The notes below the pieces were generated by a model. It was not told the DNA's origin. It ran no database searches and saw only the letters and a list, made by a program, of their open reading frames with translations. Below are positions 16,117 to 34,382 of a DNA stretch of 41,532 nucleotides, piece by piece. The number at the start of each line of letters is the position of its first letter. The stretch's first letter is position 1. The stretch is taken from assembly GCA_964360995.1 (NCBI GenBank), contig CAYHYZ010000004.1, forward strand, positions 1-41,532, in the 5' to 3' direction. Source of the DNA: an uncultured Candidatus Saccharibacteria bacterium. Lineage in GTDB: Bacteria; Patescibacteriota; Minisyncoccia; Ryanbacterales; HO2-45-13. Position numbers and translations under genes: made by a program.

Positions 16117-16282
16117 AGATATTATGATGAGAATTTCTTATACGCAGATTGACATGGCTCCTGGGGTAGTCCAGAGTTGGTGGAATAATCTTTCGGAATC
16201 ATCTTATCACGCGACGCGGAAGGCAGTATGGGAAGAATGTAATACGCGTCTGCGTGCGGACATATTTTTTCCAGTATTCTAG
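16100..16282 (+). pseudogene. Remnant of the C-terminal ~60 codons of a second exostosin-family gene (inside track ORF 16070..16282)
   Basis: ..SEIAYKDIMMRISYTQIDMAPGVVQSWWNNLSESSYHATRKAVWEECNTRLRADIFFPVF* aligns with the end of the intact gene. That end reads ..EEINYDEFVLTVSIQKINDLPGATAQWWNNLTPASYQEKQESAFQMFNRFLRADKYFTRLF. There is no upstream catalytic part. Confidence 0.7.
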
Positions 16283-16289
16283 AATCACT

Positions 16290-17348
16290 ATGAATATTTT
16301 ATATATTTTTTCAGGAACCAGAAAGGACAAAACGCGTGGAAGAATTCACGTAGACTACCCCGACACACAACTATATGGCCAGAATCATTTAGTGAAATTT
16401 GGTATGAATGCGGAGTATAGAGAATTTAAAGACCAATACCCAATTATCGGTTTTTTTTCAAAAATCATCGGATTTCGCGGCAGACACTCCTTGATGTTTT
16501 TCTTAGCACGCCATTATGATGTCGTTTTTGGGATTTCCGTTTTGTACATGCTTATTTGGAAAAAATTTATCCGAACTGAAACGAAGTTTATCATTTTTAA
16601 TTCTGTTCTCAGTCGATTACTTAATGTGCATAAGCAGAGTTCTATAAAATTTAAAATACTCGTATGGATTCTCAGAGAGGTTGACGGTATTGTGTTCTTA
16701 GCACAGATTGATTTGAAAAATGTAGCCTCACGTCTTCCATTTTTAAAGGAGAAATTATTTATTGTTCATATGGGTGTTGATAAAGACTACTATAAATTTA
16801 TCTGCCATGGAAGGGAAGATTTTTTACTTTCCGTAGGGCGAGACGATGCTCGTGATTATAAAACTGTAATCGACGTTGCAAAAAAAATGCCTATGGAAAA
16901 ATTCCATCTTGTGTGCCTTCCACGTAATATACAACACATCCAAGATATACCGCCAAACGTTCATATTCATGTAAATATATCAATAAACGAATTGCAAGAT
17001 TTTTATGGAAAAGCAAAGGCGCTCCTTTTGATCACCCACAAAGATACATATAGTGAGGGTTCGGACTCCTCCGGTCCAACCGTTCTTCTTGAGGCGATGG
17101 CATCGGGGCTACCAATCATCGCGAGCAAAAAAGAATATCTCAATGATTATGTCGAGCATGAAAAAGATGTACTACTCGTTGATTTCTATGACAGCGATGC
17201 TATTGTGAATGGCATTCGTACAATATCCAAAGGTGACATGGGACTAAACATGGCGAAGAATGCGCGACTAAAAGTCGATACATCATTGAACACCGAAGAG
17301 ATGGCTCATAAACTCGCACGAGTATTTAAAATAATCCATGAAAAATAA
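16290..17348 (+). CDS. Glycosyltransferase, GT4-like
   Basis: The start is taken at ATG 16290 (MNILYIFSG..), just after the remnant stop. The C-terminal ..EGSDSSGPTVLLEAMASGLPIIASK.. is a GT-B signature. Confidence 0.8.
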   Translation: MNILYIFSGTRKDKTRGRIHVDYPDTQLYGQNHLVKFGMNAEYREFKDQYPIIGFFSKIIGFRGRHSLMFFLARHYDVVFGISVLYMLIWKKFIRTETKFIIFNSVLSRLLNVHKQSSIKFKILVWILREVDGIVFLAQIDLKNVASRLPFLKEKLFIVHMGVDKDYYKFICHGREDFLLSVGRDDARDYKTVIDVAKKMPMEKFHLVCLPRNIQHIQDIPPNVHIHVNISINELQDFYGKAKALLLITHKDTYSEGSDSSGPTVLLEAMASGLPIIASKKEYLNDYVEHEKDVLLVDFYDSDAIVNGIRTISKGDMGLNMAKNARLKVDTSLNTEEMAHKLARVFKIIHEK

Positions 17349-18363
17349 ATTACAATATTACTGCAATACATGTTTGCAATCTTACGAAGCTTCGTCTGAA
17401 AAGCTTTTCTGTTTATATTGTAAGAAGGTCGTTCCGATTATCCATGGAATTCCCGTATTTTCTAACGACATCTACTGGGGAAAAATTGCAGAACCAGAGC
17501 TCAAAAATATTATCGATCTTATCGAGAACCATGGTTTTGATGCTTTTTCTCTTCAGTTGCAGAAAAAGCTTGATTTCACATTTGATGAAGATCGTGCAGA
17601 TTGGATTTTTTTTATTCCTCCTTCAAACGAATTAGTAGTTCTCGATATTGGAGCTGGCCTCGGACGGATAACTATTCCACTCGCAAAAATTGCTAAACAT
17701 GTTATTGCGTGCGATCAATCGATTTCACGTATGCGTTTTTTGAAAAAACGCGCCGAAGCAGAGCAATTGAATAATGTCAGTGTATTTGTTGGTGATATAT
17801 TTGATTTACCAATAAAGGAAAATAGCATTGACCTTATCGTTATGAATGGCGTCCTTGAATGGGTCGGGCAGACAAAATTGTACAATAATCCACGCCATGC
17901 GCAAATCAAAAGTTTAGAAATATGCCGCAAGCTACTTAAAAAGGGTGGGCATATTTATATAGGTATAGAAAATCGCTTTGCCTTTGTGTATGCGAGAGCA
18001 TTCGACCATGGGGGTTTAAGATACACCAGCTTTATGCCCAGACCAATCGCAAATATTTATTCACAACTACGCATAAATGCTCCTTATAGGACCTATACGT
18101 ATTCTAAACGTAGTTATGAAACATTATTACGCGAATCTGGATTTACAGATCGGGCAAAATTTTATTTAGAGTATCCTGGTTATAATTTGCCACGGATCAT
18201 TATCCCTTATGATAATATACATATCCTTCAATATGCGATGACAACGTTCAAGCGCTCGCAGAACATTTTTGTGCAGATGTTACTATTTTTGTTGCGCTCC
18301 TTGGCGGTTGTTCGAGTGTACCGTTTCGTATTTTATAGTTTCGGTATAATAGTAAAAAAATGA
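17338..18363 (+). CDS. Class I SAM-dependent methyltransferase with an N-terminal Trm112-like zinc-ribbon and a hydrophobic C-terminal tail
   Basis: The N-terminus has CNTC..(x15)..CLYC followed by IIHGIPVF. SAM motif I is VLDIGAGLGRITIPLA, and motif II/III is DLIVMNGVLEW. The tail is ..IFVQMLLFLLRSLAVVRVYRFVFYSFGIIV. Confidence 0.75.
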   Translation: MKNKLQYYCNTCLQSYEASSEKLFCLYCKKVVPIIHGIPVFSNDIYWGKIAEPELKNIIDLIENHGFDAFSLQLQKKLDFTFDEDRADWIFFIPPSNELVVLDIGAGLGRITIPLAKIAKHVIACDQSISRMRFLKKRAEAEQLNNVSVFVGDIFDLPIKENSIDLIVMNGVLEWVGQTKLYNNPRHAQIKSLEICRKLLKKGGHIYIGIENRFAFVYARAFDHGGLRYTSFMPRPIANIYSQLRINAPYRTYTYSKRSYETLLRESGFTDRAKFYLEYPGYNLPRIIIPYDNIHILQYAMTTFKRSQNIFVQMLLFLLRSLAVVRVYRFVFYSFGIIVKK

Positions 18364-19232
18364 TTTCGTTTATTGAAAAAATACTGAAGGATAGCCCGGG
18401 CATTTTACCTATTTCAACTACTGATCGACTAGGATTTTTAAAATATAGTACAGCAATTTCCGGAAAAGGAGTTGGGAATAAGGTCATTTTTTTTGTTTTT
18501 ACTGACAGAAACATTATTCCGGTGGCAATCGTTAAAACTGTTAGGTCGTATCGAGATGCCGAGGTAATACGGCGCTCGTATGGCGCTTTACAGATGTTAA
18601 ATAAGCTCACTAAATATTCATCGTTCTCTGCGATGTTTCCACAAGCAATTCTGGTTTATGACGATGGCCACATCATTTTTAACGTAGAAACAATGTGCAT
18701 TGGTAATAAGGTCAACAGCGAGCGAGATATGGAGAAGATTATAGAAGCATATTTTTCGTTTTCTAAGTATATTGCAATGCGTACTTCTGATAATATCGTG
18801 TTGGACATACACTACGGCGTACAGTTAATAAAGGAACTTCAGGGTCCTAGGGAAACAATCGATGGAATTATTAAGTATTTTACTGATCTGTGGGGCAATG
18901 TTTCACTCCAATTACCGCGTATCCCGCAACATGGTGACCTGACTACCGATAATGTCCTTATTGACGGAGATAAGATAATGTTTATTGATTGTGATACGTT
19001 CGGCATGATCAATATTCCTGGCTTTGATGTATTTCACTTAGTGGCGAGAAAACAAAATAATAATTGGCGCAATGTACTTGATGCCTATTACGATCAAGTA
19101 AATATTCAGTGCACTTTCAGAGAAAAACTATTGATTATGTATCTTCTGCACGAGATACACATAAAAAAAGATTATATTCTTTTTCAGAAAAGTCTGGAAA
19201 CTATTATTAGTGAGTTTGCGGCTTTGATATAA
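18360..19232 (+). CDS. APH/choline-kinase-like phosphotransferase (protein-kinase-like fold)
   Basis: The catalytic loop is PQHGDLTTDNVLIDGDKIMFIDCDTFG (HGD....N plus the metal-binding D). The start forms an ATGA overlap with the preceding gene. Confidence 0.7.
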   Translation: MISFIEKILKDSPGILPISTTDRLGFLKYSTAISGKGVGNKVIFFVFTDRNIIPVAIVKTVRSYRDAEVIRRSYGALQMLNKLTKYSSFSAMFPQAILVYDDGHIIFNVETMCIGNKVNSERDMEKIIEAYFSFSKYIAMRTSDNIVLDIHYGVQLIKELQGPRETIDGIIKYFTDLWGNVSLQLPRIPQHGDLTTDNVLIDGDKIMFIDCDTFGMINIPGFDVFHLVARKQNNNWRNVLDAYYDQVNIQCTFREKLLIMYLLHEIHIKKDYILFQKSLETIISEFAALI

Positions 19233-23276: not shown

Positions 23277-24467
23277 ATGTTAACTATTTTTGGTAATTTA
23301 CGAATAAACTCTGGGGAGCGCCTTCAACACATGAAGGACTCTCTTCAGTCATTTAAGGACATTAGTGATAACTGGGTCATTAATATTCGTGGATCATTTC
23401 GTGAAGAGGCCATATTATTTTTGAAACAGCACCTTGGCGATAAATTGTCGTTGTGTGAGTTCCTGGACGATGGGAGGGGGTGGATCGAGAACGCCCTCGA
23501 CATGATGCCAAATGTAAAGCATGACTATATTCTGTTGTGGATTGAAGACCACATCAACGTTTCTCCGACCGAAATATACACTGAAATCATTCAAGACATG
23601 AAAACTGCCCATGCAGATTACCTGCTATATTCTTGGTGGATGTTTGGAAAATCTCGCGAGGCATTTTCTGTAGTTCCAATGGAAAAACTACAGCATATTG
23701 ATGTTATTAAACTGGATGAGCAGTTGTGGAAGAAAATAATGGGCCATGGGCACCCATATTATCTTCTTTCCCTTCTTGGGATATATCGAAAATCGTTTTT
23801 GATACGAATGATGAAAAACGATCGAAGAAAGCTGCCGAGACAAACTATCCGATATATTTTTATGACGATGGCGTTATTGGACAAATTAGGAATCCACTTC
23901 GACCACACAAAAGCATTCCAATCTTTGCATCGCCTCACTGGTTACCGACTACGTCGATTCAGCAAAGAGGCTCCATTTGATCTCGAAAAATCTTCCGACC
24001 GATTTGACATGTTGCCATTTACCATGGCACTCTCCCGCCAAGAGCTTTTTGCATGTATAGACGACAATCTCGGTATGCCAGGATATAGTTTAGAATCTCG
24101 TGGTTTATACAAAGAAAAAAACCTTGAAGGACCTAGAAAAATCAACGAGCGCATAGAGAAAGCTTGGGGATATGAGGAAATACTTGAAACTAATTCTCAC
24201 TATACCGTCAAGCGCTTATTTATGAAAAAAAGTTTCCAATGCTCGTTTCAGTATCATAAAAAAATGACGGTGACAGTTGTAGGACTCTCCGGCGAACTAC
24301 ATGTCATTCTCGAAAATGGTGTCCGCGTCCTACATCAGGGAGATGTTATTACCATTCCTCCACTCATGAAACATCGCATGTTTGCTCCTACTGAAAATGC
24401 TCTGTATCTTGAACTTTCTACCTCGGAAATAGATGCCGTTGTACAATTCAACGATGATCACAGCTAA
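23277..24467 (+). CDS. Two-domain protein: N-terminal ~290 aa of unknown family plus a C-terminal PMI-type (type II mannose-6-phosphate-isomerase-like) cupin
   Basis: The cupin part (about 24159-24467) reads KAWGYEEILETNSHYTVKRLF..SFQYHKK..HVILENG..GDVITIPPLMKHRMFA..LELSTSEID. It is paralogous to the stand-alone cupin at 28369. I recognise no family in the N-domain (..DYILLWIEDHINV..). Confidence 0.6.
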   Translation: MLTIFGNLRINSGERLQHMKDSLQSFKDISDNWVINIRGSFREEAILFLKQHLGDKLSLCEFLDDGRGWIENALDMMPNVKHDYILLWIEDHINVSPTEIYTEIIQDMKTAHADYLLYSWWMFGKSREAFSVVPMEKLQHIDVIKLDEQLWKKIMGHGHPYYLLSLLGIYRKSFLIRMMKNDRRKLPRQTIRYIFMTMALLDKLGIHFDHTKAFQSLHRLTGYRLRRFSKEAPFDLEKSSDRFDMLPFTMALSRQELFACIDDNLGMPGYSLESRGLYKEKNLEGPRKINERIEKAWGYEEILETNSHYTVKRLFMKKSFQCSFQYHKKMTVTVVGLSGELHVILENGVRVLHQGDVITIPPLMKHRMFAPTENALYLELSTSEIDAVVQFNDDHS

Positions 24468-25491
24468 ACAGAAAATAATGCCAGATACTACATCCGGTAA
24501 ACCCATAAGCAAGATAGGTATCGGTCCCATGAGTCCAGAAATTATTGATGCTGTATATCGCTTTTCCGCCGATAACAATATTCCCATGATGCTTATTGCA
24601 TCAAAAAACCAAATCGATTGGGACGGTGGCTATGTGAATAACTGGAATACCGCGCAATATAGAAATTATTTAAACACCATGGTGGCCAAATATCCTGACG
24701 CAAAAGTTTTTATTTGTAGAGATCACTGTGGTCCGGGGTTTAAAAATCATCACCTTGATGATACATACAACACCATTAATGCCGATATTGAAAACGACTT
24801 TGATTTAATCCATGTAGATTATTGTCACCTCAAGGGCGATAAAACACAAATCCTTGAGAAATCTCAAAAAGCAATAGAATATATTCTCAAAAAAAACAAG
24901 GACATTCTTATTGAGGTGGGAACGGACGAAAATACCGGAGCATATTTAACAAATTTGGACGCGATTAAACGAGAAATGGAGTTTTTTACGAGCATTACGC
25001 CTATTCATTTCTTTGTGTGCCAAACTGGCAGTCTGGTTACTGAAACTAACCAGGCAGGATCATTTAACGATACTTTTTTAAGAAAAGTAAAAGGGGTCGC
25101 AAATCAATTTGGTATATTTCTTAAAGAACACAACGCTGACTATATTGATAAAAGGACCATCGCGCGTCGTTCGGGTATCATTGACGCAGTAAACGTGGCG
25201 CCCCAATACGGCGTCATTCAAACAAAATTAACACTCCATAAAGCATTTGTTTATGGACTCGATCCTCGTGAATTTCTGGAGGAAGCGTATCAAAGTGAGC
25301 GCTGGAAAAAATGGCTCGATGTGAACACGAGGGAAAATAAGTACCTCTGCTCAATTATCGCCGGACATTATGTATTCTCAAGCGATGCATATAAAAAGCT
25401 CTACGAAAAAATCAACTCCCATGAAGATTTTAGAGAAACAATTATTCAAGAAATGATGCGCAACTTTAAAATTTATGCGGATAATCTCTGA
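24454..25491 (+). CDS. Divergent GatZ/KbaZ-like protein (class II tagatose/fructose-bisphosphate aldolase superfamily TIM barrel)
   Basis: Blocks match my memory of E. coli GatZ: MMLIASKNQIDWDGGYVNNWNTAQY ([23 protein letters not shown]), ICRDHCGPG (GGDHLGP) and LIHVDY (IHLDAS). Further blocks are IEVGTDE (IGTEVP), KEHNADY (EAHSTDY) and AVNVAPQ (ILKVGPA). Start ATG candidates are 24433, 24454 and 24478. Confidence 0.6.
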   Translation: MITAKQKIMPDTTSGKPISKIGIGPMSPEIIDAVYRFSADNNIPMMLIASKNQIDWDGGYVNNWNTAQYRNYLNTMVAKYPDAKVFICRDHCGPGFKNHHLDDTYNTINADIENDFDLIHVDYCHLKGDKTQILEKSQKAIEYILKKNKDILIEVGTDENTGAYLTNLDAIKREMEFFTSITPIHFFVCQTGSLVTETNQAGSFNDTFLRKVKGVANQFGIFLKEHNADYIDKRTIARRSGIIDAVNVAPQYGVIQTKLTLHKAFVYGLDPREFLEEAYQSERWKKWLDVNTRENKYLCSIIAGHYVFSSDAYKKLYEKINSHEDFRETIIQEMMRNFKIYADNL

Positions 25492-25494
25492 TAA

Positions 25495-25971
25495 ATGAGC
25501 AAACCGATCAAAAACTTCATTCTCGATGTTGATGGCGTGCTTACCACCGGACAATTTCTTTATACAATAGATGGTAAGTTCGCCAAGGTATTCGGACCAC
25601 ACGACAATGATGGAATTAAATTAATTATCCCCCACCTTAATGTGTTCGCTATTTCTGCAGATAAACGTGGATTTTTAATCACAAAAAAAAGGGTCGCTGA
25701 TGATATGGGCCTGGAACTCAAATTGGTCCCCGAAGCAGAAAGACTTTCCTGGCTGCGACAAAATTTCGATCTTTCTGAATCCGTATATATGGGTGATGGA
25801 ATTCACGATGCTATTATTTTTGATTTTGTGGCATATAGCATCGCTCCGTCAAGTGCATTCTATACCGCACGTGCGAAAGCAGCATTTGTTACCAACGCAA
25901 AAGCTGGCGAGGGAGCCGTGGCTGAGGCGTGTCTTCATCTTCTAGAAAAATTCTTTACCCAACATAAATGA
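25495..25971 (+). CDS. HAD-IIIA phosphatase, KdsC/YrbI-like (sugar-acid/sugar phosphate phosphatase)
   Basis: Motif I is FILDVDGVLTTG. The segments SADKRG and YMGDGIHD (motif IV GD...D) are present. The 158-aa size and the tail ..AKAGEGAVAEACLHLL fit the KdsC family. Confidence 0.75.
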   Translation: MSKPIKNFILDVDGVLTTGQFLYTIDGKFAKVFGPHDNDGIKLIIPHLNVFAISADKRGFLITKKRVADDMGLELKLVPEAERLSWLRQNFDLSESVYMGDGIHDAIIFDFVAYSIAPSSAFYTARAKAAFVTNAKAGEGAVAEACLHLLEKFFTQHK

Positions 25972-27557
25972 AGTATACGAGTTACAAAGTATGTATTTTG
26001 GCTGCGAGGGTCGAACATTCAATGCAAAAGCTGACACATAGCATCAATAAAGCAATTCTTCCGGTAAATTTTAAAGCTGTTATATCACATATTATTGAAA
26101 AGTTTCCTGCAGAAATTGAACTGGTGGTTGCTTTGGGCCACAAAAAAGATACCATAGTGGATTACCTCACTCTTGCACACCCAAATCGAAAATTTACTTT
26201 TGTTGAAATTAATAATATTGCCGAACCAAGAACTAATAATGGTTGCGCGCTACTGCAATGCAGGCCCAATCTCCAATGCCCATTTATTTTTTGCACTACA
26301 GATACTTTCGTACTGGAAGAGGTTCCCGCGCCAGAGTATAACTGGCTTGGAGTCGGACCGGAAGAGAGCTCCGAACTGTTCAGTACTGTGAAAATACGGG
26401 ACAAACGTATCTATCAGATTGACAACGAGACAAAAGATAATAATGAATTCGGCTTCATCGGCTTAGCTGGCATTAAAGATTATGAAAAGTTCTTTGAAGG
26501 ATTGTCGAAAAGCATAGAAGACACAAAAGGCGCGATCCATATATTTAATGGACTAAGACATTTAATCGAATACGATCTCTCCCCAATTGCGTTTACTTGG
26601 CATAATACACACACCTTAGAAGCCTATACCAAAACAAATAAGCTCTTCAGTGGAGAAAATAAATTTAATTTCAGTAAGGGTAGTGGCGACGAATTCTTGT
26701 ACTTTGTTGGAAACAAAGTTATTAAATTTTTTGCTGATAAAACCATTACGGAGAATCGACATGAGCGGGCCCAAAAATATTTAAATGATCTTTGCCCAAA
26801 AATTGATCCTCGAAAAGGTAATTTTTATTCTTACAATAAAATAGAAGGACAAGTGTTTTATGATGTACTCGATCGCCAAATGGTTATTGATTTCTTAGAA
26901 TGGGCAAGAACTCATCTATGGAAACAAATAAACCTTACCGAAGAAGCAAGGCGGGAATACGCCGAGGCTTGCGAAGAATTTTATGTAAACAAAACCAAGA
27001 AACGCATACAGAAATTTTACGATAAAACAGGTATCACAGATACCACAACTTTTATCAACGGTATATCGGTACCACCACTTTATGAACTTTTTAAAAAAAT
27101 AAATTGGCTCCATGTAAAGGACGGAACCCCGAGTAACTTCCATGGTGATCTTCAGTTCGACAACATTCTTTTTATAAAAGACGCCGTGGACAAAAAAAAT
27201 AAGTTTCTTCTTCTTGATTGGAGACAGGATTTTGCGGGGCTAGTCAGTCACGGGGACATGTATTATGACTTGGCAAAGCTCTATGGGGGCACGCTAGTCT
27301 CTTATAAGCTTATTAAAGAAGCGATGTTTTCTTTTGATATGTCGGATAATATTGTCCACTATAACTATTTCATTAAAAATGATCTTAACGAAGCGAGAGA
27401 AGAATTCGAATATTTTTTAAAAAAGCACGACTTCGACATAAAAAAAGTGAAAATTATTACTGCGCTTATTTTCCTTAATATGTCGCCCTTACATGAAGAA
27501 CCATTCGATAAACTTCTTTACTTCATGGGGAGAAGTATGCTGAGTAGACTTATATGA
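25968..27557 (+). CDS. Fusion protein: N-terminal nucleotidyltransferase-like domain (degenerate G-loop) plus C-terminal APH/choline-kinase-like kinase domain
   Basis: The N-terminal ~235 aa are paralogous to the NTase at 28745 (shared LQCPF[IV]F, NW[LI]G, IGL.GI.DY). The C-terminal domain has the catalytic loop FHGDLQFDNILF..FLLLDWRQDF. The start forms an ATGA overlap with the upstream gene. Confidence 0.7.
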   Translation: MKYTSYKVCILAARVEHSMQKLTHSINKAILPVNFKAVISHIIEKFPAEIELVVALGHKKDTIVDYLTLAHPNRKFTFVEINNIAEPRTNNGCALLQCRPNLQCPFIFCTTDTFVLEEVPAPEYNWLGVGPEESSELFSTVKIRDKRIYQIDNETKDNNEFGFIGLAGIKDYEKFFEGLSKSIEDTKGAIHIFNGLRHLIEYDLSPIAFTWHNTHTLEAYTKTNKLFSGENKFNFSKGSGDEFLYFVGNKVIKFFADKTITENRHERAQKYLNDLCPKIDPRKGNFYSYNKIEGQVFYDVLDRQMVIDFLEWARTHLWKQINLTEEARREYAEACEEFYVNKTKKRIQKFYDKTGITDTTTFINGISVPPLYELFKKINWLHVKDGTPSNFHGDLQFDNILFIKDAVDKKNKFLLLDWRQDFAGLVSHGDMYYDLAKLYGGTLVSYKLIKEAMFSFDMSDNIVHYNYFIKNDLNEAREEFEYFLKKHDFDIKKVKIITALIFLNMSPLHEEPFDKLLYFMGRSMLSRLI

Positions 27558-28324
27558 AGGAAGGAGTATTTAATGTACTATCAGGTGATACATCACCACA
27601 CCCAATGTTACGAGAAAAAACAATTTTAATAACAGGCTCCTCGAAGGGTATTGGGGCAGTAACTGCAAGGCTCGCTAAAAATTATGGCGCCAATGTCATC
27701 CTTCACGGCAGAACTGAATCTGCAAACTTAAAAAAACTCTCACGAGAGCTCAATGCTCCATATATTTTTTGCGATGTCGGTGATGAAGGCAGTGTAAAGG
27801 CAGCGCTGGAAAAATTTCCAAAAATAGATGTATTAATAAACAATGCTGGCATCAGCATCTCTAAACCCTTCCAGGAACTCACAAGTCAAGAATGGCTCGA
27901 GACATTTAATACCAACGTGCTTGGTGCGGTTCATTTTTCAAAAACGGTTATCCCACAGATGATCAGACAAAAAGGAGGAAAAATAATACACATATCCTCA
28001 ATCAAGGGCCTCCCAAATACGGCAGGTCGGGCTGCTTTTGCTTCCTCAAAAGCCGCGCTTATTACTATGACTGCAAGTATGGCAAGAGAGCTCGCTGAGT
28101 ATAATATTCTAGTAAACTGCGTCGCTCCGGGATTTACGGAGACGGAGACAGCAACATCGGTTTGGACTAGTAGAATATATAATCAAATTAAAGAAACTCC
28201 CATTGGTAGAGCTGCTCGGCCTGAAGAAATCGCGGAGGTAATTTTATTTCTCGCCAGTGATAAGTCGAGCTATATTACTGGACAGACTATTATTGTTGAC
28301 GGTGGATACAGTATTTCTGGTTAA
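27554..28324 (+). CDS. Classical short-chain dehydrogenase/reductase (FabG-like) with Phe in place of the catalytic Tyr
   Basis: The motifs TGSSKGIG, NNAGI, ISSIKG and VNCVAPGF are present. The Y-x3-K motif reads F-A-S-S-K (AAFASSKAAL). Confidence 0.8.
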   Translation: MKEGVFNVLSGDTSPHPMLREKTILITGSSKGIGAVTARLAKNYGANVILHGRTESANLKKLSRELNAPYIFCDVGDEGSVKAALEKFPKIDVLINNAGISISKPFQELTSQEWLETFNTNVLGAVHFSKTVIPQMIRQKGGKIIHISSIKGLPNTAGRAAFASSKAALITMTASMARELAEYNILVNCVAPGFTETETATSVWTSRIYNQIKETPIGRAARPEEIAEVILFLASDKSSYITGQTIIVDGGYSISG

Positions 28325-28368
28325 ATAGTAGCATCAGTAAAATACATTAATGTGGGTTTACAAATCAC

Positions 28369-28758
28369 ATGAAACATAAAACTCCAAAAACGGTCATAAA
28401 GCCTTGGGGCAAAGAAATTTGGCTAGAGCTCAATGATAAGTATTGTTATAAGCGAATCTACATCAATGCAGGCACTAAAACGAGCTATCAATACCACAAC
28501 CAAAAGTTGGAAACCAATTACATTATCGACGGCGAAGCTGAAGTGTGGCTTGAAAATGATCATGGCGTCGTAGAAAAACAAAAAATGAAAAAAGATGACT
28601 TCTTCAACGTCGCACCCTTAAAGAAACACCGCATTATTGCAATTACAGATATCATTCTTCAGGAAGTTTCAACTCCTGAAGTAGATGATGTAATTAGAAT
28701 TGAGGACGATACAAATCGTCCGGATGGTCGAATCAATAGTGAACATGGAACAGTATAA
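28369..28758 (+). CDS. Stand-alone PMI-type cupin (type II mannose-6-phosphate isomerase C-terminal-domain-like)
   Basis: The 129-aa protein reads KPWGKEIWLELNDKYCYKRIYINAGTKTSYQYHNQKLETNYIIDGEAEVWLEN..APLKKHRIIA..LQEVSTPEVDD. This matches the rPWG..vK.i.v.pG..lS.Q.H..R.E pattern of ManC-type cupins. Confidence 0.7.
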   Translation: MKHKTPKTVIKPWGKEIWLELNDKYCYKRIYINAGTKTSYQYHNQKLETNYIIDGEAEVWLENDHGVVEKQKMKKDDFFNVAPLKKHRIIAITDIILQEVSTPEVDDVIRIEDDTNRPDGRINSEHGTV

Positions 28759-29473
28759 GGTACTATTGCCAACCTCGGGCACTGGTTCGCGGCTCAAAGA
28801 AATAACTGCAAACACCAATAAAGCATTGCTGTCTCTTCATGGTAAGCCCACCATTACTTACATAATCGATTCCTATCCCCAAGAGGTAACTTTTGTCGTT
28901 ACGCTTGGTTATTTAGGCAACAGCGTAAAAACATTTCTTGAAACAAATTACCCCGATAGGCAATTTGAATTTGTGTGGGTTGATAAATATAAAGGTCCTG
29001 GAAGCAGCCTTGGGTACTCGATACTGAAAGCTCAAAAAGAGTTGCAATGCCCGTTTGTTTTTCATGCCTGCGATGGAATATTTATAGAAAAAATACCGCC
29101 ACCTGATCATAATTGGATTGGAGGATTTGTAGAAGATTGGGATAGAAGCATTCTTGCCCTTGCTGAATATCGCTCACATCGTATGAATGATGGAAACATT
29201 GTGTCATTTATCGAACGGGGAGTACCGGGTTTTGATTCACTTCATATAGGATTGGACGGTATTAGAGATTACAAACTCTGGTGGCAAGTACTTGAAGAAG
29301 TCGTTCACAACGACCCTCACAACACTCAAATATCCGACGTGCCAATCCTTGATTTAATGATGAAACGCGGTGCTAAATTTTCATGGATTCCTTTTAAAGT
29401 GTGGCTCGATATAGGAAATCTCCCAGGACTCACACGAGCAAAAGAATACTTATCTGAAAAAGAAATGATATGA
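28745..29473 (+). CDS. Sugar-phosphate nucleotidyltransferase (canonical G-loop)
   Basis: The start is taken at ATG 28745 (MEQYKVLLPTSGTGSRLKEITANTNKALLSL), a 14-nt overlap with the cupin gene. The G-x-G-x-R signature is intact. Nucleotide and sugar specificity cannot be called. Confidence 0.75.
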   Translation: MEQYKVLLPTSGTGSRLKEITANTNKALLSLHGKPTITYIIDSYPQEVTFVVTLGYLGNSVKTFLETNYPDRQFEFVWVDKYKGPGSSLGYSILKAQKELQCPFVFHACDGIFIEKIPPPDHNWIGGFVEDWDRSILALAEYRSHRMNDGNIVSFIERGVPGFDSLHIGLDGIRDYKLWWQVLEEVVHNDPHNTQISDVPILDLMMKRGAKFSWIPFKVWLDIGNLPGLTRAKEYLSEKEMI

Positions 29474-30618
29474 AACAATCTAACGACTGCACTATTCGGG
29501 ATAAAAGTTTGCTGAAAGAAACGGCAAAGCTTGAACATCTTTTTACTTTTAAAGATTTCCCCGTATTCATGGGCTGTGTCGACACACCTCAAAGCGAAGA
29601 TATTGTTGCAGATATGATTTGGGATATTTGCAAAGACACGGGCATCATTCAGCTGCGAGAATTACTTCCACTTGAAATACTCTATCTTGGACAACATAAC
29701 GATGGAATTGGAGTAATTTGGCATGGACTCTACAAGCAATTCGCAGAATTTATCTATCAACAATCCCCCGGTAAACATATACTTGAAATTGGTGGTGCGA
29801 ATGACGCCATTGCAAAGTATTTTTTGGAACGCGATGCTAGTGTATCATGGACCATTGTCGAACCACATCCAGATTTTGTGAGTGATCCGCGCATACGAGT
29901 TGTAAGATCATGGTTTGATGAAGATTTTTCAATTGACGAAGAAGTAGATACTATTATCCACTCGCATGTGTTTGAACATACGTATGACCCTGTCGCATTC
30001 CTTACACATATTAATCACTTTCTAAAACCTGGGAAAAGGCATATTTTTACTTTCCCGAATATGCTTCCGATGCTAGAGCATAAATTTACCAACTGTCTCA
30101 ATTTCGAACATACCGCTTTCCTCACCGAAGATATTATAGAATACCTACTAACAACCATTGGATTCGAAATTGTTGCTAAAGAATATTATGGTGATCCACA
30201 TAGTATTCTGTATTCAACAATTAAACGTCAGGCGCCAAGCGCTCCCCCATCATTACCAAATCACTACAAAGAATACAAAAAAATATTCATGGAATTTATT
30301 TCCTACCACAACAATATGGTGAGCGACCTTAATAATAAAATACACGCGGAAATACTACCGATCTATCTTTTCGGTGCGCATATTTTTTCACAGTATTTAA
30401 TTCAATTCGGACTTAAAACCAAAAAGATCGTCTCAATTCTTGATAATAGTCCGCAAAAAAACGGAAAACGCCTGTATGGTACGAATCTTTTGGTCGCTTC
30501 TCCAAAAATACTCAGAGATAAAGGACGAGTTATCGTTATTCTAAAAGCCGGTATCTATAACGAGGAGATTAAAAAAGACATCCTGGAGAATATAAACAGC
30601 GAGGTAGAGTTTTGGTAA
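29470..30618 (+). CDS. SAM-dependent methyltransferase of the NDP-sugar C-methyltransferase type (TylCIII-like, with C-methyltransferase C-terminal domain)
   Basis: The segments ..ICKDTGIIQLRELLPLEILY.., SAM motif ILEIGGANDAIAKYF and IHSHVFEHTYDP are present. The C-terminal Rossmann-like part is PIYLFGAHIFSQYLIQFG..ILDNSPQKNGKRLYGTN. The N-terminal four-Cys zinc site usual in this family is absent. Confidence 0.6.
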   Translation: MKQSNDCTIRDKSLLKETAKLEHLFTFKDFPVFMGCVDTPQSEDIVADMIWDICKDTGIIQLRELLPLEILYLGQHNDGIGVIWHGLYKQFAEFIYQQSPGKHILEIGGANDAIAKYFLERDASVSWTIVEPHPDFVSDPRIRVVRSWFDEDFSIDEEVDTIIHSHVFEHTYDPVAFLTHINHFLKPGKRHIFTFPNMLPMLEHKFTNCLNFEHTAFLTEDIIEYLLTTIGFEIVAKEYYGDPHSILYSTIKRQAPSAPPSLPNHYKEYKKIFMEFISYHNNMVSDLNNKIHAEILPIYLFGAHIFSQYLIQFGLKTKKIVSILDNSPQKNGKRLYGTNLLVASPKILRDKGRVIVILKAGIYNEEIKKDILENINSEVEFW

Positions 30619-30704: not shown

Positions 30705-30743
30705 AAGAAAAAATTGAGTGCGTTGCCGCTCGGCAACGCACTC
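30705..30743 (-). terminator. Strong rho-independent terminator between convergent operons (T-tract on the minus-strand side)
   Basis: The hairpin GAGTGCGTTGCC-gctc-GGCAACGCACTC (30716-30743) is a perfect 12-bp stem. On the minus-strand sense it is followed by AATTTTTT. It lies 28 nt beyond the stop of the 30771..31400 gene. Confidence 0.7.
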
Positions 30744-30770
30744 AAGATACTAAAACTCTTTTCCCGGGAA

Positions 30771-31400
30771 TTACACGCGGTATATCCCTGGCTTCCACGG
30801 GATTTCTCCGGAGGAATCTCCGAATAGGCCCATGGCCGCGCAGAGAAACTGAAAGTAGATATGGGTTCCGGAATTTCCGTATCTGCCGAAAATCTCCGGC
30901 CAACTCATCCACCCAATCTCTTCAAGGGACCCATTCCCTTCCCCCCGCTTCTTCGCGAGACTCATATCTACAGCATAAACATGAGCAATGAAGGGCACTT
31001 CTGGTTCGGCCGGCCTGTCTTCGATGATGAGCTCATGCTCACCTGCTTCGACGTGCGACCAATTGAGCGCCGGTCCGGCGGTACCAATGATTCTGATGCC
31101 TCTCGGATCCACATCGTAACCAATTTTTTCAGCAATGGATCTTACAACTGCGTCACGTGGAGTATCATCCTTACCGGGAAGAATGTGACCACCCCCGGGA
31201 TTCGATGTTGTGCACGCCGGCGGCTTTGCAACCGACAACGCACCCTTCAGGCGCCGACAAACGAGAACCTCAGGAAGACCTTGTGTTACGGATCGGAACA
31301 AAACGGGCTCGACAACGGGAAATGCTGTCGGTCCCCAGTTTTTCATTCCTTCCCGCTGTTTGGAACCATCAAGACCGTCGAAACCACGAAACTTGCCCAT
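30771..31400 (-). CDS. Hypothetical protein, possibly a Nudix-fold protein with a degenerate Nudix box
   Basis: The start is taken at ATG 31400, preceded by GGGAGG with a 4-nt spacer (the track start at 31418 is TTG). The segment ..GGGHILPGKDDTPRDAVVRSIAEKIGY.. loosely fits G-x5-E-x7-REUxEExGU, but two Glu positions are S and K. Coding status is supported by its own promoter, SD and terminator; the function is weakly supported. Confidence 0.5.
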   Translation of the reverse strand: MGKFRGFDGLDGSKQREGMKNWGPTAFPVVEPVLFRSVTQGLPEVLVCRRLKGALSVAKPPACTTSNPGGGHILPGKDDTPRDAVVRSIAEKIGYDVDPRGIRIIGTAGPALNWSHVEAGEHELIIEDRPAEPEVPFIAHVYAVDMSLAKKRGEGNGSLEEIGWMSWPEIFGRYGNSGTHIYFQFLCAAMGLFGDSSGEIPWKPGIYRV

Positions 31401-31433
31401 AAAACCTCCCAAGAACAAATGAACAACGTGCGC

Positions 31434-31462
31434 ATAGTAACAGACAGGTCCTGTTCTGTCAA
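31434..31462 (-). promoter_or_regulatory. Near-consensus sigma-70-like promoter for the 30771..31400 gene, with a palindrome in the spacer
   Basis: The minus-sense sequence is TTGACA, a 17-nt spacer, then TACTAT. The spacer contains ACAGG-n-CCTGT (31444-31454). The -10 element lies 33 nt upstream of the ATG. Confidence 0.5.
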
Positions 31463-31479
31463 TACTGCGCGAGGCGAAT

Positions 31480-32058
31480 TCAAATGACGCCCTTTCCCAG
31501 ATCGGGATTCTCGATAAATGCGTAGGTGAGAATATTACAAATGGTCATTTGCACATCCTCGACGCGGCCATAATGCGTTTCATTTATCGCAATGACATGT
31601 TTGGCAATGTCTGCTATCCTCCCCCGCTTTGCCCCTACAAGCGCAATTGTTTCGAGACCGTTGTCTATCGCCCATTCGAACGCCTTCACGCAGTTCGGCG
31701 AGTTACCGCTTACACTGATCCCAAAAACAATATCTCCGGATACCGCATAATTCTTAAGCTGACCAACGAACACATCTTCATACGAGTAGTCGTTCGCGAG
31801 CGCTGTTATCCAACTGACATTATCATTGAGAGAAAGTATTTTAAAACACTTGCCAACTTTCATAGATGCTGACTTTCCAAGTACTGTCGCAAAGTGAGAG
31901 GCGTTTGACGCGCTACCTCCATTGCCAAATACGAAAATATTTTTATTCTTCTCGAGTGCATTACGTAATTTCTCAATCAATACAACCACAACATCGACGG
32001 GTATGGAATCGTAAGCATTTTTTTGAGCACGAATATAATCAGCGACCCATTGTTTCAT
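31480..32058 (-). CDS. gmhA: D-sedoheptulose-7-phosphate isomerase (phosphoheptose isomerase, SIS domain)
   Basis: The 192-aa protein reads ..IFVFGNGGSASNASHFATVLGK.., ..GDIVFGISVSGNSPNCVKA.., ..ALVGAKRGRIADIA... This matches the GmhA SIS pattern. Confidence 0.85.
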   Translation of the reverse strand: MKQWVADYIRAQKNAYDSIPVDVVVVLIEKLRNALEKNKNIFVFGNGGSASNASHFATVLGKSASMKVGKCFKILSLNDNVSWITALANDYSYEDVFVGQLKNYAVSGDIVFGISVSGNSPNCVKAFEWAIDNGLETIALVGAKRGRIADIAKHVIAINETHYGRVEDVQMTICNILTYAFIENPDLGKGVI

Positions 32059-32112
32059 ATCTATTCAGGCAATTAGAATTATAATTTAACATTTTAAATT
32101 TTTTTGTTCAAC

Positions 32113-32140
32113 TTGTTTAAGACGACCGGTAAGGTATACT
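32113..32140 (+). promoter_or_regulatory. Sigma-70-like promoter immediately upstream of hddC (possible leaderless transcript)
   Basis: The sequence is TTGTTT (32113-32118), a 16-nt spacer, then TATACT (32135-32140). The ATG at 32147 lies only 6 nt after the -10 box, and there is no SD. Confidence 0.35.
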
Positions 32141-32146
32141 TATTCG

Positions 32147-32821
32147 ATGAAACTCGTAATTCTGGCGGCTGGGGAGGGTGTGCGCATGAGGCCGCTGACC
32201 TATACAGTACCGAAGCCCCTTTTGTGCTATCGAAATAAGACAGCACTTGACCATCTCTTTGACGCTCTGCCTGATGCCATAGACGAAGTCTCTATTATTG
32301 TTCAGTATTTACATGAACATATACGCTCATATTGTGGTAGTGTTTTTCATGGTAAAACTATTCACTATATTGAAGGTGAAAAAACAGGCAATGCATTGGG
32401 ATTTATGAAGAGCAGAAAATTCATTGATGATGGCGAACGTTTTGCAGTCGCGTATGCTGACGATGTGCTCACCAAAAAAGAAGTACTGGACTGCTTGTCA
32501 TACGAATTTTCTTGGCTGTATTATATTATCGCAAACCCAAAGAACGTGGGAGTACTAGAAGTCGATCAACATAACATCGTGAGTAACCTCATTGAAAAGC
32601 CCGAGAACCCCACTTCGAATTTAGTTGCAGATGGATTTATGGTGGTGAATTCCGATATTTTCGCATATACACCCATGCTTCACCCGAACGGAGAATATTA
32701 TTTCTCCGACCTTATGGCTCAATTTTGCAAAGACCATAAGGTGGTGGCTGTTGCGGGTGACCCAAAACATTCTCAATTAACAAGCCCGCAAGACATTGAA
32801 CGGTTAAATACACTGCCATGA
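32147..32821 (+). CDS. hddC: Sugar-1-phosphate nucleotidyltransferase, by context D-glycero-alpha-D-manno-heptose-1-phosphate guanylyltransferase
   Basis: MKLVILAAGEGVRMRPLTYTVPKPLL is a canonical NTase signature. The 224-aa gene is translationally coupled to hddA and gmhB. The NTase fold is secure; the heptose/GTP specificity is inferred from the neighbourhood. Confidence 0.7.
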   Translation: MKLVILAAGEGVRMRPLTYTVPKPLLCYRNKTALDHLFDALPDAIDEVSIIVQYLHEHIRSYCGSVFHGKTIHYIEGEKTGNALGFMKSRKFIDDGERFAVAYADDVLTKKEVLDCLSYEFSWLYYIIANPKNVGVLEVDQHNIVSNLIEKPENPTSNLVADGFMVVNSDIFAYTPMLHPNGEYYFSDLMAQFCKDHKVVAVAGDPKHSQLTSPQDIERLNTLP

Positions 32822-33822
32822 TTCTTGTCCGGGCACCACTTCGTATAAGTTTTATGGGAGGCGGCACCGACCTTCCAAATTATTATCGTGTTTCTCCGGG
32901 TCGCGTTATTTCAACGAGTATTAATCAGCACGTCTATCTCGCTATACATCGGACACAATTCATTGATAAAATCATGGTTAAATATTCCACGACTGAAATT
33001 GTAAATAGTCTCCATGAATTAAAACACGATCGTGTGCGTGAAGGACTTCTTTCCTTACATATTGAAAACAATATCGAAATTGGGTCTTTCGCATCAATAC
33101 CCATGCGTATCGGTCTCGGTTCATCGTCTAGTTTCACTGTGGCACTCATAAAAGGACTCCACGCTTTACTTGGAAAGGAATTGAATAATAGGTCGGTTGC
33201 GGAGGCCGCCTGTCAAATTGAAATCGATCGGCTCCAAGAGCCGATCGGCAAGCAGGATCAATATGCCTCTGCATTTGGAGGATTGAACATTCTTGAATTT
33301 GGAAGTGACGAGAGTGTAGTAGTAAAACCTGTTGACCTTACAGCTTCACAACGATCGAAATTTGAGAAATGCCTATTACTTTTTTTTACCGGGATGACAA
33401 GAGATGCATCCAGTGTTCTGAGAACGCAGATCCAGGATATCAAAAAGCATATCGAAACATATACACTTTTAAGTCAGATGGTCCAGGAGTTTTACACTGC
33501 GCTCAAATCGGAAAACATCGAAACAGCTGGGTACATATTACACAAAAGCTGGGAACTAAAAAAAAGTTTATCTTCAAATATTTCGAACAATATCATTGAT
33601 GATTTCTATAGTATTGGCCTATCATCTGGAGCCTGGGGCGGTAAAATTGTAGGTGCAGGTGGAGGAGGTTGTGTGTTGTTTATGGCGCCAGAAGAAACAC
33701 ATGATGCGATACGTAAATCCCTCCACGTTTTCGCAACCATAAATCAGCTACTGGACTACAAAGAAATACCCGTCGAATTTGAAGATAAGGGTGTGGAAAT
33801 AGTGTTTAACGCACTCACATGA
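32818..33822 (+). CDS. hddA: GHMP-family D-glycero-alpha-D-manno-heptose-7-phosphate kinase
   Basis: MILVRAPLRISFMGGGTDLPNYY is an HddA-type N-terminus. The GHMP motif PMRIGLGSSSSF and the C-terminal ..GGKIVGAGGGGCVLF.. are also present. Confidence 0.85.
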   Translation: MILVRAPLRISFMGGGTDLPNYYRVSPGRVISTSINQHVYLAIHRTQFIDKIMVKYSTTEIVNSLHELKHDRVREGLLSLHIENNIEIGSFASIPMRIGLGSSSSFTVALIKGLHALLGKELNNRSVAEAACQIEIDRLQEPIGKQDQYASAFGGLNILEFGSDESVVVKPVDLTASQRSKFEKCLLLFFTGMTRDASSVLRTQIQDIKKHIETYTLLSQMVQEFYTALKSENIETAGYILHKSWELKKSLSSNISNNIIDDFYSIGLSSGAWGGKIVGAGGGGCVLFMAPEETHDAIRKSLHVFATINQLLDYKEIPVEFEDKGVEIVFNALT

Positions 33823-34382
33823 AAAGATCCGCAATCTTCCTAGATCGCGATGGAACAATAAATGAACTCGTAGATCCAAGAAATGTGACTAACAAGCTCC
33901 TCATCCTTCCGATGGCAGCCGAAGCAATCCGAGAGTTGAACAAAATGGGTTTTGTCGTTATTGTTATTACGAATCAGGCCGCAATAGCGCGCGGTCTGCT
34001 CACTGAACACATTCTTCATGAAATTCACGAATCTTTGCGTCTTGAACTTCTCCGCTCTCGTGCAGTAATTGATGCTTTTTATCACTGTCCTCATCACCCC
34101 ACCGAAGCGATTGTATCTAAATATAATCTCGTCTGTTCCTGTCGCAAGCCAGCGACTGGCCTTATCCAAAACGCCGTCGAAGATTTTGACATTAACGTGG
34201 AGCGAAGTTTTCTTATCGGTGACATGACCACAGATATCGCCGCGGGAAGAGCAATGGGTATAAAAACTATTTTGGTGGAAACAGGATTCGCTGGAAAAGA
34301 TAAACTCGTTACAGCACTTTCCGACTACACAAGTAAACATCTCATGGATGCGGTGTCCATAATAAGACAGTCGATAAAATAG
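33819..34382 (+). CDS. gmhB: D-glycero-D-manno-heptose-1,7-bisphosphate 7-phosphatase (HAD-IIIA)
   Basis: The motifs FLDRDGTIN and VITNQAAIARG are present. The zinc motif is CPHHP..(x13)..CSCRKP, and LIGDMTTDIAAG follows. Confidence 0.85.
   Translation: MKRSAIFLDRDGTINELVDPRNVTNKLLILPMAAEAIRELNKMGFVVIVITNQAAIARGLLTEHILHEIHESLRLELLRSRAVIDAFYHCPHHPTEAIVSKYNLVCSCRKPATGLIQNAVEDFDINVERSFLIGDMTTDIAAGRAMGIKTILVETGFAGKDKLVTALSDYTSKHLMDAVSIIRQSIK

Follow-up and report, generated by a model that had tools for sequence, protein, structure and literature searches.

A conserved cassette for a candidate undescribed activated-sugar pathway in a groundwater Patescibacteriota genome

The first 41,532 nt of contig CAYHYZ010000004.1 (GenBank assembly GCA_964360995.1), referred to below as the window, derive from an uncultured Candidatus Saccharibacteria bacterium (GTDB lineage Patescibacteriota; Minisyncoccia; Ryanbacterales) in a groundwater metagenome of Hainich well H52 (0.1 µm fraction). 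Within a polysaccharide locus, the window carries eight co-directional open reading frames (ORFs) on the plus strand at 23277-30618, designated g1 to g8, and the question that they raise is whether they work together and, if so, towards which product. The original prediction, made from the sequence and its ORF listing, read them as one eight-gene module that repeats the logic of the heptose pathway (isomerase, kinase, phosphatase and nucleotidyltransferase, NTase) with unrelated folds, and as a candidate undescribed activated-sugar pathway. Comparative analysis gives an answer in two parts. A core of a GatZ-like TIM barrel (g2), a haloacid dehalogenase (HAD) superfamily phosphatase (g3), an NTase-kinase fusion (g4), an oxidoreductase (g5) and a phosphomannose isomerase (PMI)-type cupin (g6) is conserved, and g1 and g8 are accessory. 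As for the product, we give an even chance to the reading in which g2 to g7 constitute one conserved pathway from a central ketose phosphate to a rare sugar in nucleotide-activated form that serves the polysaccharide locus around it; a single pathway is favoured because the core genes are linked, fused and have largely kept their catalytic residues.

Co-occurrence of the core functions across genomes

We fetched 80 genomic loci around NTase-kinase fusions and compared the window proteins with their six-frame ORFs; some counts below are per 85 loci. A set of 56 independent loci in which the fusion is flanked by 4 kb or more on each side (well-flanked loci) spans bacteria of the candidate phyla radiation (CPR), archaea of the DPANN group and more than 10 other phyla. 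A GatZ-like gene and a g6-like cupin gene are each present near the fusion in all 56 well-flanked loci, an oxidoreductase gene in 55 and a g3-like HAD gene in 49, and all four accompany the fusion in 48. A g8-like C-methyltransferase gene occurs in only eight of them (13 of 85 loci overall), and homologues of the N-terminal domain of g1 are found in only 10 of the 85 loci. The expected co-occurrence in other genomes is thus borne out, for the core functions at 48 to 56 of 56 loci and by gene fusions in addition, and the eight-gene module of the original prediction has to be narrowed to g2 to g6. The heptose genes that also reside in the window occur alongside the cassette in only three to nine of the 85 loci, which argues that the heptose set is independent of it.

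The gene order differs between clades, HAD-AroE-fusion-GatZ-cupin in one arrangement and HAD-GatZ-X-cupin-fusion-AroE in another; therefore the linkage is selected rather than inherited as synteny. In addition, core genes are joined to each other in several combinations. Within the loci these are HAD-NTase (L043, L053), NTase-kinase-GatZ-like (L046, L047) and cupin-NTase-kinase (L067, L077), and among protein sequences they are NTase-APH-GatZ (P0367), PMI-cupin-NTase-APH in five separate clusters and NTase-APH-GT2 (P0426), where APH is the aminoglycoside phosphotransferase fold of the kinase and GT2 a glycosyltransferase (GT) family. The fusion to GT2 suggests that the cassette product is a glycosyl donor. 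The cassette genes form a conserved functional unit.

The oxidoreductase of this unit is of two interchangeable types. A shikimate-dehydrogenase-like (AroE-like) protein, recognized by the Pfam models Shikimate_dh_N, Shikimate_DH and SDH_C and by TIGR00507 (211 bits), is encoded directly beside the fusion in 51 loci, and a short-chain dehydrogenase/reductase (SDR) similar to g5 is encoded in 22 to 24. No locus has both types, and the eight with neither are mostly truncated (Fisher p = 1.6e-13). Therefore the SDR, which had been taken for a tailoring enzyme, belongs to the core and is one of two solutions for an obligatory redox step. Reduction of a keto-sugar by an enzyme of the shikimate dehydrogenase family has a precedent in 5-ketofructose reductase (PMC7954740).

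The family of the fusion is large. More than 2000 full-length relatives of g4 share 52-68% identity with it and belong to CPR bacteria (Falkowbacteria, Peribacteria and others) and DPANN archaea (Pace-, Woese- and Nanoarchaeota, Diapherotrites), and a second clade at 33-40% identity is distributed in many other phyla; an exhaustive HMMER search at E<=1e-30 gave 591 clusters at 50% identity. Candidates for culturable or enrichable carriers include relatives of Legionella, Sedimenticola, Kordiimonas and Halieaceae, and Saccharibacteria in co-culture. The source names of about 360 listed homologues are all generic ("choline kinase", "NDP-sugar pyrophosphorylase family protein" or "hypothetical"). 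A tblastn search with the g4 fusion gave no match in plasmids and a single one in phages, at 16034-17557 of an unannotated marine contig (GenBank MH319741.1). This contig, which bears the name 'Marine virus AG-345-E15' and stems from single-cell amplification, codes for a protein homologous to the NTase-kinase fusion over its full length (30% identity, E 4e-74) and represents either a virus with glycan genes or a misassigned cellular contig. In two loci of DPANN archaea on contigs of the GW2011_AR17 type (L003 and L004, 6990-7913), a gene of the inositol monophosphatase family lies directly upstream of the fusion, beside the HAD and SDR genes, and its product may be an alternative or additional phosphatase.

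Predicted activities of the cassette proteins

The fold calls made earlier for all eight proteins hold, on the evidence of Pfam and NCBIfam matches that nearly always lie below curated thresholds, together with Foldseek searches and profile alignments. Single-sequence searches of the Protein Data Bank (PDB) with g2, g4 and g8 gave marginal matches only, and family profiles were needed for all three.

g2 falls just short of the Pfam family PF08013 (E 6.7e-6, 25.5 bits vs the cut-off of 26.7) and far short of TIGR02810 (23.1 bits vs 568.8); only its N-terminal third aligns. Its AlphaFold2 model has a mean predicted local distance difference test (pLDDT) score of 92, and the best Foldseek matches are the GatZ structures 2fiq and 3txv (E 4e-16, TM-score 0.78, TMq 0.76-0.79), followed by class II fructose- and tagatose-bisphosphate aldolases at about 1e-10. 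The alignment of the g2 family with E. coli GatZ by hhalign covered the first 100 residues only, and the remainder was aligned with GatZ and GatY by MAFFT. In this alignment Asp82-His83, Asp150 and His218 of g2 correspond to Asp87-His88, Glu171 and His257 of GatZ. Together with some 40 further positions, these residues (with Asp or Glu at position 150) show at least 95% conservation across 73 homologues; Asp82-His83 and His218 are invariant, and residue 150 lies within a GT[DE] motif. Arg81, Glu146, Lys216, Asn239 and Lys278 of g2 are conserved as well. Like GatZ, g2 is without the beta-6 His and the HGxSG loop that holds the C1 phosphate of dihydroxyacetone phosphate (DHAP), an absence that points to a ketose whose C1 hydroxyl is free. 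On the same ground, a route to 6-deoxy sugars through a DHAP-dependent aldolase was set aside. GatZ and KbaZ have long been annotated as aldolase chaperones, and such a role beside GatY was rejected for g2 because none of the 85 loci has a GatY-like partner. We predict that g2 is a metal-dependent retro-aldol/aldol enzyme, either a ketose-phosphate 4-epimerase or an aldolase. It may represent a catalytic third branch of the superfamily, with epimerase as its best-precedented function, since E. coli GatZ and KbaZ confer fructose-6-phosphate/tagatose-6-phosphate 4-epimerase activity in engineered E. coli strains (PMC11907403); the zinc retro-aldol mechanism and the ligand set of GatZ are a docking model (PMC11907403).

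The N-terminal half of g4 is modelled with a fold similar to those of RmlA, MurU, LicC and PntC. In the kinase half, the Brenner motif HGDLQFDN and the Mg-binding motif DWRxDF..GDxxYDLAK are invariant; the APH family (PF01636) matches 22 of 26 members of the g4 family (best E 1.9e-6) and g4 of the window below threshold (E 0.033), and the match of the family to Choline_kinase is negligible. The NTase half of the window protein has decayed: GxGxR reads RVEHS, the GPGTGPG loop reads EPRTNNG, the pLDDT of the AlphaFold model drops below 50 exactly at these two loops, and g4 is the only one of the 26 members that has no NTP_transf_3 match. The stand-alone g7, with weak Pfam and NCBIfam NTase matches, is 28-40% identical to the N-terminal domains of the fusions and has SGTGSRL, GPGSSLG and QCPFVF in common with the family consensus. 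Close orthologues of g7 (55-66% identity) are encoded in five loci, in four of which the fusion has lost its Arg. In a motif search, a stand-alone NTase gene was nearby in 12 of 15 loci flagged for Arg loss vs 8 of 63 with the Arg intact (p ~1e-6). In two of the three flagged loci without such a gene (L063, L076), the Arg is visible by eye and the flags look like artefacts of the search pattern; with this correction the count would become 12 of 13. Because Arg loss tracks a nearby stand-alone NTase, g7 seems to replace the N-terminal domain of g4. g7, previously listed as an additional canonical NTase, is a paralogue of the fusion NTase domain that has kept its motifs, and it is predicted to have taken over nucleotidyl transfer from the decayed domain, with g4 acting mainly as a kinase in this organism.

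The matches of g3 to the KdsC/YrbI-type phosphatase model TIGR01670 (E 2.5e-16, 60.0 bits vs 106.95) and to NF007019 (48.2 bits vs 208) are below the cut-offs, and so is the match to the model for the phosphatase of 2-keto-3-deoxynononic acid 9-phosphate (KDN-9-P). The protein is capless with 158 aa, and Asp11 and Asp13 of the DxD motif as well as Gly100-Asp101-Gly102 and Asp105 of the GDGxxD motif are at least 95% conserved in 65 homologues. g6 reaches the PMI family PF01050 (E 1.2e-8, 35.6 bits vs 23.6), and its score with the NCBIfam model GMP_PMI is 36.8 vs a cut-off of 373. Gln41, His43, Glu48 and His87, a set that we take to resemble the PMI metal site, and several Lys and Arg residues are at least 95% conserved in 73 homologues. 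Proteins up to 85% identical to g6 occur in distant taxa, even across domains. g6 is predicted to be an aldose-ketose phosphate isomerase.

g1 had been described as an unknown N-terminal domain joined to a PMI-type cupin, and this architecture stands: the C-terminus matches Cupin_2 and PF01050 just above threshold, and the N-terminal domain has no Pfam or PDB match even as a family profile. The cupin is a degenerate paralogue: it keeps the QxH motif and the second His and has Val in place of the Glu metal ligand. A conserved protein of about 274 aa is encoded between the GatZ-like gene and the cupin gene in locus L075 (8348-9172) and in 11 other loci of the distant, Legionella-type clade. It has no Pfam match and begins like a GT-A glycosyltransferase (IILNRN...; FFLLTNDTE). 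By hhalign it is unrelated to the N-terminal domain of g1; our guess, from motifs only, is that both have a GT-A fold. g8 matches the Pfam models Methyltransf_23 and Methyltransf_14, and residues 13-366 of its family profile align with residues 13-393 of the D-mycarose 3-C-methyltransferase TylC3 (4rv9; E 1.2e-13) and also with TcaB9 and KijD1. The NFEH motif is invariant in the g8 family, the N-terminal Cys4 zinc ribbon is absent, and Cys36 is the sole invariant Cys. Distant g8 homologues in L026 and L046 retain the CxxC...CxxC zinc ribbon of TylC3-type enzymes.

A proposed route and its rivals

In the favoured reading, g2 would use retro-aldol/aldol chemistry to invert C4 of a ketose phosphate, turning fructose-6-phosphate into tagatose-6-phosphate, for example, and the cupin g6 would isomerize the resulting ketose phosphate to an aldose phosphate. 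The APH-fold kinase of g4 would then phosphorylate a second position, probably the anomeric one, and the HAD enzyme g3 would remove the original distal phosphate to leave an aldose-1-phosphate, so that kinase and phosphatase would stand in for a mutase as in the heptose pathway. A nucleoside diphosphate (NDP) sugar would be formed by the N-terminal domain of the fusion in most organisms and by g7 in this window, and an NAD(P)-dependent oxidoreductase, either the g5 SDR or the shikimate-dehydrogenase-like protein, would carry out an obligatory redox step. g8, if present, would C-methylate an NDP-linked keto intermediate ahead of reduction.

The evidence for this scheme consists of folds, conserved catalytic residues, linkage, fusions and the pattern in which g7 complements g4; the substrates, the nucleotide, the order of the steps, the product and every chemical step are what we infer, and this counts against it together with several specific observations. 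Three proposed substrate contacts of GatZ, Cys20, Glu44 and Lys279, are Gly16, Ile40 and Asn239 in g2 (the beta-8 correspondence of Lys279 and Asn239 comes from a four-way MAFFT alignment, not from the first alignment), and Glu146 and Asn239 of g2 resemble GatY and true aldolases, so g2 may be something other than an epimerase. The best solved relative of the g4 NTase family profile is LicC, a phospho-alcohol cytidylyltransferase (E 4.9e-8), and in a Foldseek search with the full g4 model the best 50 matches all fall in the NTase domain. g5 belongs to adh_short_C2 (E 1.7e-60) and has the cofactor motif TGSSKGIG, but the catalytic Tyr of its YxxxK motif is Phe162 (FASSK; codon TTT at 28037); Phe also replaces Tyr in four of 21 other g5-like SDRs (L010, L038, L058, L064). 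Finally, a scheme that walks the phosphate along the chain gives the universal oxidoreductase no task, and a TylC3-like g8 implies an NDP-keto intermediate that the dehydratase-free aldose route does not supply. The isomerase-kinase-phosphatase-NTase logic of the original prediction is therefore reasonable, and strengthened by the cupin-NTase fusions, but it leaves the obligatory redox step unexplained. The products named with it, a sugar reached via tagatose-6-phosphate or an NDP-alditol, are candidates.

A serious though less likely alternative, which would explain both that redox step and the keto group, has an NDP-ketose or NDP-alditol as its product. The GatZ-like enzyme would make a rare ketose phosphate, kinase and phosphatase would relocate the phosphate to the primary carbon at the opposite end, the LicC-like NTase would yield an NDP-linked open-chain ketose, g8, if present, would methylate the carbon beside the keto group, and the SDR or AroE-like enzyme would reduce the keto group to give an NDP-hexitol (or pentitol) for transfer as alditol phosphate. 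This agrees with an oxidoreductase gene that is obligatory (55 of 56) and adjoins the fusion, with LicC as the best solved NTase relative, with the demand of a TylC3-like g8 for an NDP-linked keto substrate and with an APH fold that includes choline-type kinases of primary alcohols. An NTase followed by an NADPH reductase acting on a cytidine diphosphate (CDP)-linked ketose is proven for CDP-6-D-glucitol (PMC10918830), and the keto-sugar reductase of the shikimate dehydrogenase family mentioned above (PMC7954740) fits as well. However, the universal PMI-type cupin would be idle, and the cupin-NTase fusions mirror the bifunctional PMI-GMP enzymes (phosphomannose isomerase-GDP-mannose pyrophosphorylase; GDP, guanosine diphosphate) of aldose pathways. 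One family member is fused to GT2, no TagF- or LicD-type phosphotransferase match is listed among the Pfam-assigned proteins of the window (the window only), where all transferases with a Pfam assignment are of GT type, and the CDP-alditol routes known so far need neither a kinase nor a phosphatase. An improbable alternative makes g2 a true aldolase that would join a dihydroxyacetone-type donor to an aldehyde or aldose phosphate and so build a longer or unusual ketose, after which the HAD enzyme would dephosphorylate, the cupin isomerize and the kinase-NTase activate the sugar in salvage fashion, with the oxidoreductase preparing the acceptor or reducing the product. All six core functions would be used, and presumably the functional classes of the cassette map one-to-one onto the GDP-octose pathway. 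In addition, g2 has the aldolase-type Glu (EaELG position) and Asn (KINVAT position of GatY) that are missing from GatZ, and sugar phosphates of eight and nine carbons are the typical substrates of KdsC-family phosphatases. Against it, g2, like GatZ, has neither the third His ligand nor the HGxSG phosphate loop that DHAP-dependent class II aldolases possess, 4-epimerization is the only activity shown for the GatZ family (PMC11907403), and there is no obvious supply of free dihydroxyacetone or of a suitable acceptor.

Two further readings bear on the novelty and the unity of the cassette. It is quite improbable that the cassette has already been described under other names or in other papers and that the window just adds a new member. 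The CDP-2-glycerol pathway of Streptococcus pneumoniae reportedly comprises a reductase (Gtp1), a kinase (Gtp3) and an NTase (Gtp2), that is, three of the six functional classes. On the other side, no model of NCBIfam release 20 (June 2026) is reached by any cassette protein, no solved structure is closer than the generic family or superfamily level, and the homologues bear generic names in carriers that are nearly all uncultured. Very improbable is the reading of the eight genes as mere neighbours in a glycan island that serve unrelated pathways, with the GatZ-like protein as a non-catalytic chaperone. It draws on the lack of a 5' boundary of the module's own inside a 21-kb co-directional array, on the presence of g1 and g8 in a minority of related loci and on the database annotation of GatZ as non-catalytic. 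For the core genes it is already contradicted: five functions stay together in 48 to 56 of 56 bacterial and archaeal loci with varied gene order and repeated fusions, g2 shows at least 95% conservation of its catalytic residues and has no GatY beside it in any locus, and GatZ itself is now known as an epimerase (PMC11907403).

Comparison with known systems places the favoured single pathway beside several routes and within none of them. GDP-D-glycero-alpha-D-manno-heptose is made by the SIS-fold isomerase GmhA, the GHMP kinase HddA, the HAD-IIIA phosphatase GmhB and the NTase HddC. The logic proposed for the cassette is alike, with an isomerase, a second-position kinase, a HAD phosphatase that removes the first phosphate and an NTase. 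However, the cassette has a cupin instead of SIS, an APH-fold instead of a GHMP kinase, a KdsC-type instead of a GmhB-type HAD enzyme and a distant NTase, and it adds an obligatory GatZ-like barrel and an obligatory oxidoreductase. The type II PMI-GMP enzymes (ManC/AlgA/XanB) share the C-terminal PMI domain PF01050 with g6, and cupin and NTase are fused in relatives of the cassette as well, but in the reversed order (cupin-NTase-kinase) and with kinase and phosphatase in place of phosphomannomutase. g2 has the Asp-His dyad, the beta-7 His and the GT[ED] acidic ligand of GatZ/KbaZ, and differs in its low identity (about 15%), its length (337 vs 420 aa), its aldolase-type Glu146 and its biosynthetic glycan context, where it is not beside gatY or phosphotransferase system (PTS) genes.

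Similarly, an APH-fold kinase and a small NTase activate a free alcohol or sugar in the LicC/LicA system (CDP-choline) and in the AmgK/MurU system (salvage of N-acetylmuramic acid to its uridine diphosphate form, UDP-MurNAc); for the cassette NTase domain, LicC is the nearest solved relative by sequence, and MurU belongs to the top structural matches. In the cassette, by contrast, the two domains are fused, the relationship is remote (E 5e-8 at best), and the fusion is tied to four more enzymes making its substrate de novo. The CDP-6-D-glucitol pathway of Campylobacter jejuni HS:5 also combines an NTase with an NAD(P)H reductase that acts on a nucleotide-linked open-chain ketose (PMC10918830), a logic that would explain the obligatory oxidoreductase. 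Nevertheless, CDP-6-D-glucitol, CDP-ribitol and CDP-arabinitol are each made by two enzymes from an existing phosphate, with no kinase, phosphatase, cupin or aldolase-like enzyme. The g8 family can be aligned across all three domains with the 3-C-methyltransferases TylC3, TcaB9 and KijD1 of NDP-4-keto-sugars and shares the invariant Glu-His motif (NFEH), but it lacks the Cys4 zinc ribbon, and the locus has no 4,6-dehydratase to provide a 4-keto-6-deoxy substrate. The CMP-Kdo pathway (KdsD, KdsA, KdsC, KdsB; cytidine monophosphate-3-deoxy-D-manno-octulosonic acid) likewise employs an isomerase, a C-C-forming TIM barrel, a KdsC-type phosphatase, to which g3 is similar, and an NTase, and the GDP-octose pathway of lincomycin biosynthesis (LmbR, N, P, K, O) runs through a transaldolase, an isomerase, a kinase, a phosphatase and an NTase. 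The cassette differs from both in the families of its isomerase and barrel, in having no synthase dependent on phosphoenolpyruvate (PEP) or transaldolase, and in its extra redox step.

Thus, as originally claimed, the genes map to no described pathway: no curated family, close solved structure or paper accounts for them, and a search for literature on this gene combination or related CDP-polyol pathways, with most subscription journals outside its reach, returned no description of the cassette. The cassette is an undescribed variant of nucleotide-activated sugar biosynthesis, built from enzyme families that are not known to cooperate, and a member of no named pathway; the near absence of cultured carriers would account for the lack of study so far. 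For the product itself, we put slightly below an even chance the possibility that it is an undescribed one, an NDP-D-talose-type hexose, a C-methyl-branched hexose or hexitol, or a longer-chain sugar, obtained with GatZ-like, cupin, SDR- or AroE-like, KdsC-like and APH-NTase enzymes in place of the textbook isomerase, mutase, dehydratase and reductase families.

Genomic setting and significance

The ORF listing and the junctions agree with the earlier description of eight tightly packed co-directional genes (Table 1). With family-supported starts for g2 (24478) and g7 (28745), gaps of 10, 3 and 44 nt separate g1/g2, g2/g3 and g5/g6, respectively, and overlaps of 4 nt join g3/g4, g4/g5 and g7/g8 and one of 14 nt joins g6/g7. 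An alternative ATG of g2 at 24433 is less likely, because the N-termini of the family align with the shorter form; the N-termini of the g7 family begin with M-x-YKV.

Table 1. Genes of the cassette and the hairpin downstream of it (window coordinates)
Feature	Position	Strand	Description
g1	23277..24467	+	396 aa; unknown N-domain (~1-285) and degenerate PMI-like cupin (~290-396); accessory
g2	24478..25491	+	337 aa; short GatZ/KbaZ-like TIM barrel of the class II aldolase superfamily; core
g3	25495..25971	+	158 aa; predicted KdsC/YrbI-type HAD sugar-phosphate phosphatase; core
g4	25968..27557	+	529 aa; NTase-like domain (~1-230) and APH-fold kinase (~240-529); signature gene of the cassette
g5	27554..28324	+	256 aa; classical FabG-like SDR; core oxidoreductase
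g6	28369..28758	+	129 aa; stand-alone PMI-type cupin; core
g7	28745..29473	+	242 aa from ATG 28745; stand-alone NTase; alternative starts 28700, 28724
g8	29470..30618	+	382 aa; TylC3/TcaB9-like sugar C-methyltransferase without N-terminal zinc ribbon; accessory
hairpin	30714..30745		palindromic, G+C-rich, 14-bp stem; between the end of g8 and convergent minus-strand genes

The cassette forms the 3' tail of a co-directional array at 9604-30618 and has no separate 5' operon end. This array encodes an initiating sugar transferase, several GT1/GT4 enzymes, methyltransferases, a deacetylase, an asparagine-synthase-like protein and a second APH-like kinase. After 30618 the coding strand switches, and the hairpin is the strongest terminator-like site in 15.5-32.5 kb and the likely 3' boundary of the transcription unit. 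The window is bacterial, encoding SecA and MurB, and its neighbouring genes with a Pfam assignment code for GT1, GT4 and GT2 glycosyltransferases, a flippase, a Wzy_C protein and the initiating transferase. The G+C content is 42-52% over the first 16 kb and 36-42% in the glycan island; the drop, at about 16 kb, falls within the polysaccharide locus and suggests that the distal glycan genes including the cassette were horizontally acquired. A 4,6-dehydratase, an aminotransferase and a Kdo or nonulosonate synthase are absent from the scanned or Pfam-listed genes of the window, the ORFs at 38470-41500 lying outside the scan. The orthodox heptose set is present at 31480-34382 as claimed, its GmhA-, HddC-, HddA- and GmhB-like proteins having their best matches to those families, below the equivalog cut-offs.

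Several other features of the window were noted. The Wzy_C (O-antigen ligase/polymerase-like) protein at 7387-9600 has C-terminal TPR repeats, and a glutamine-dependent asparagine-synthase homologue is encoded at 11994-13805; homologues of the latter kind are often used to amidate sugars. At 17338-19232, the second APH-like kinase (290 aa, weak APH and weak GntI kinase matches), unrelated to that of g4, is translationally coupled to a class I methyltransferase, and the pair may form a further phospho-modification system. The region 30771-31487, which separates g8 from the gmhA-like gene, has a G+C content of 48.6% vs about 40% around it. A minus-strand ORF of 215 aa in this region, with no Pfam or NCBIfam match, is almost fully overlapped by an opposite-strand ORF of 208 aa, and the gene caller chose the minus-strand ORF (209 aa).

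Very little is known about the surface chemistry of the CPR bacteria and DPANN archaea, which live in attachment to host cells. Given its conservation and spread, the cassette probably supplies a common building block of CPR and DPANN surfaces. Once solved, the pathway would yield a new nucleotide sugar or alditol and place the GatZ family in biosynthesis for the first time; it would also assign a further function to a shikimate-dehydrogenase-like enzyme and show a clear instance of non-orthologous displacement at almost all steps of a familiar pathway logic. The cassette can also help to annotate thousands of genes that now carry the labels "choline kinase", "NDP-sugar pyrophosphorylase", "shikimate dehydrogenase" or "hypothetical". 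If the product is indeed an undescribed one, the cassette, exchanged among CPR bacteria, DPANN archaea and free-living bacteria, would define a common surface sugar of ultra-small host-dependent microbes.

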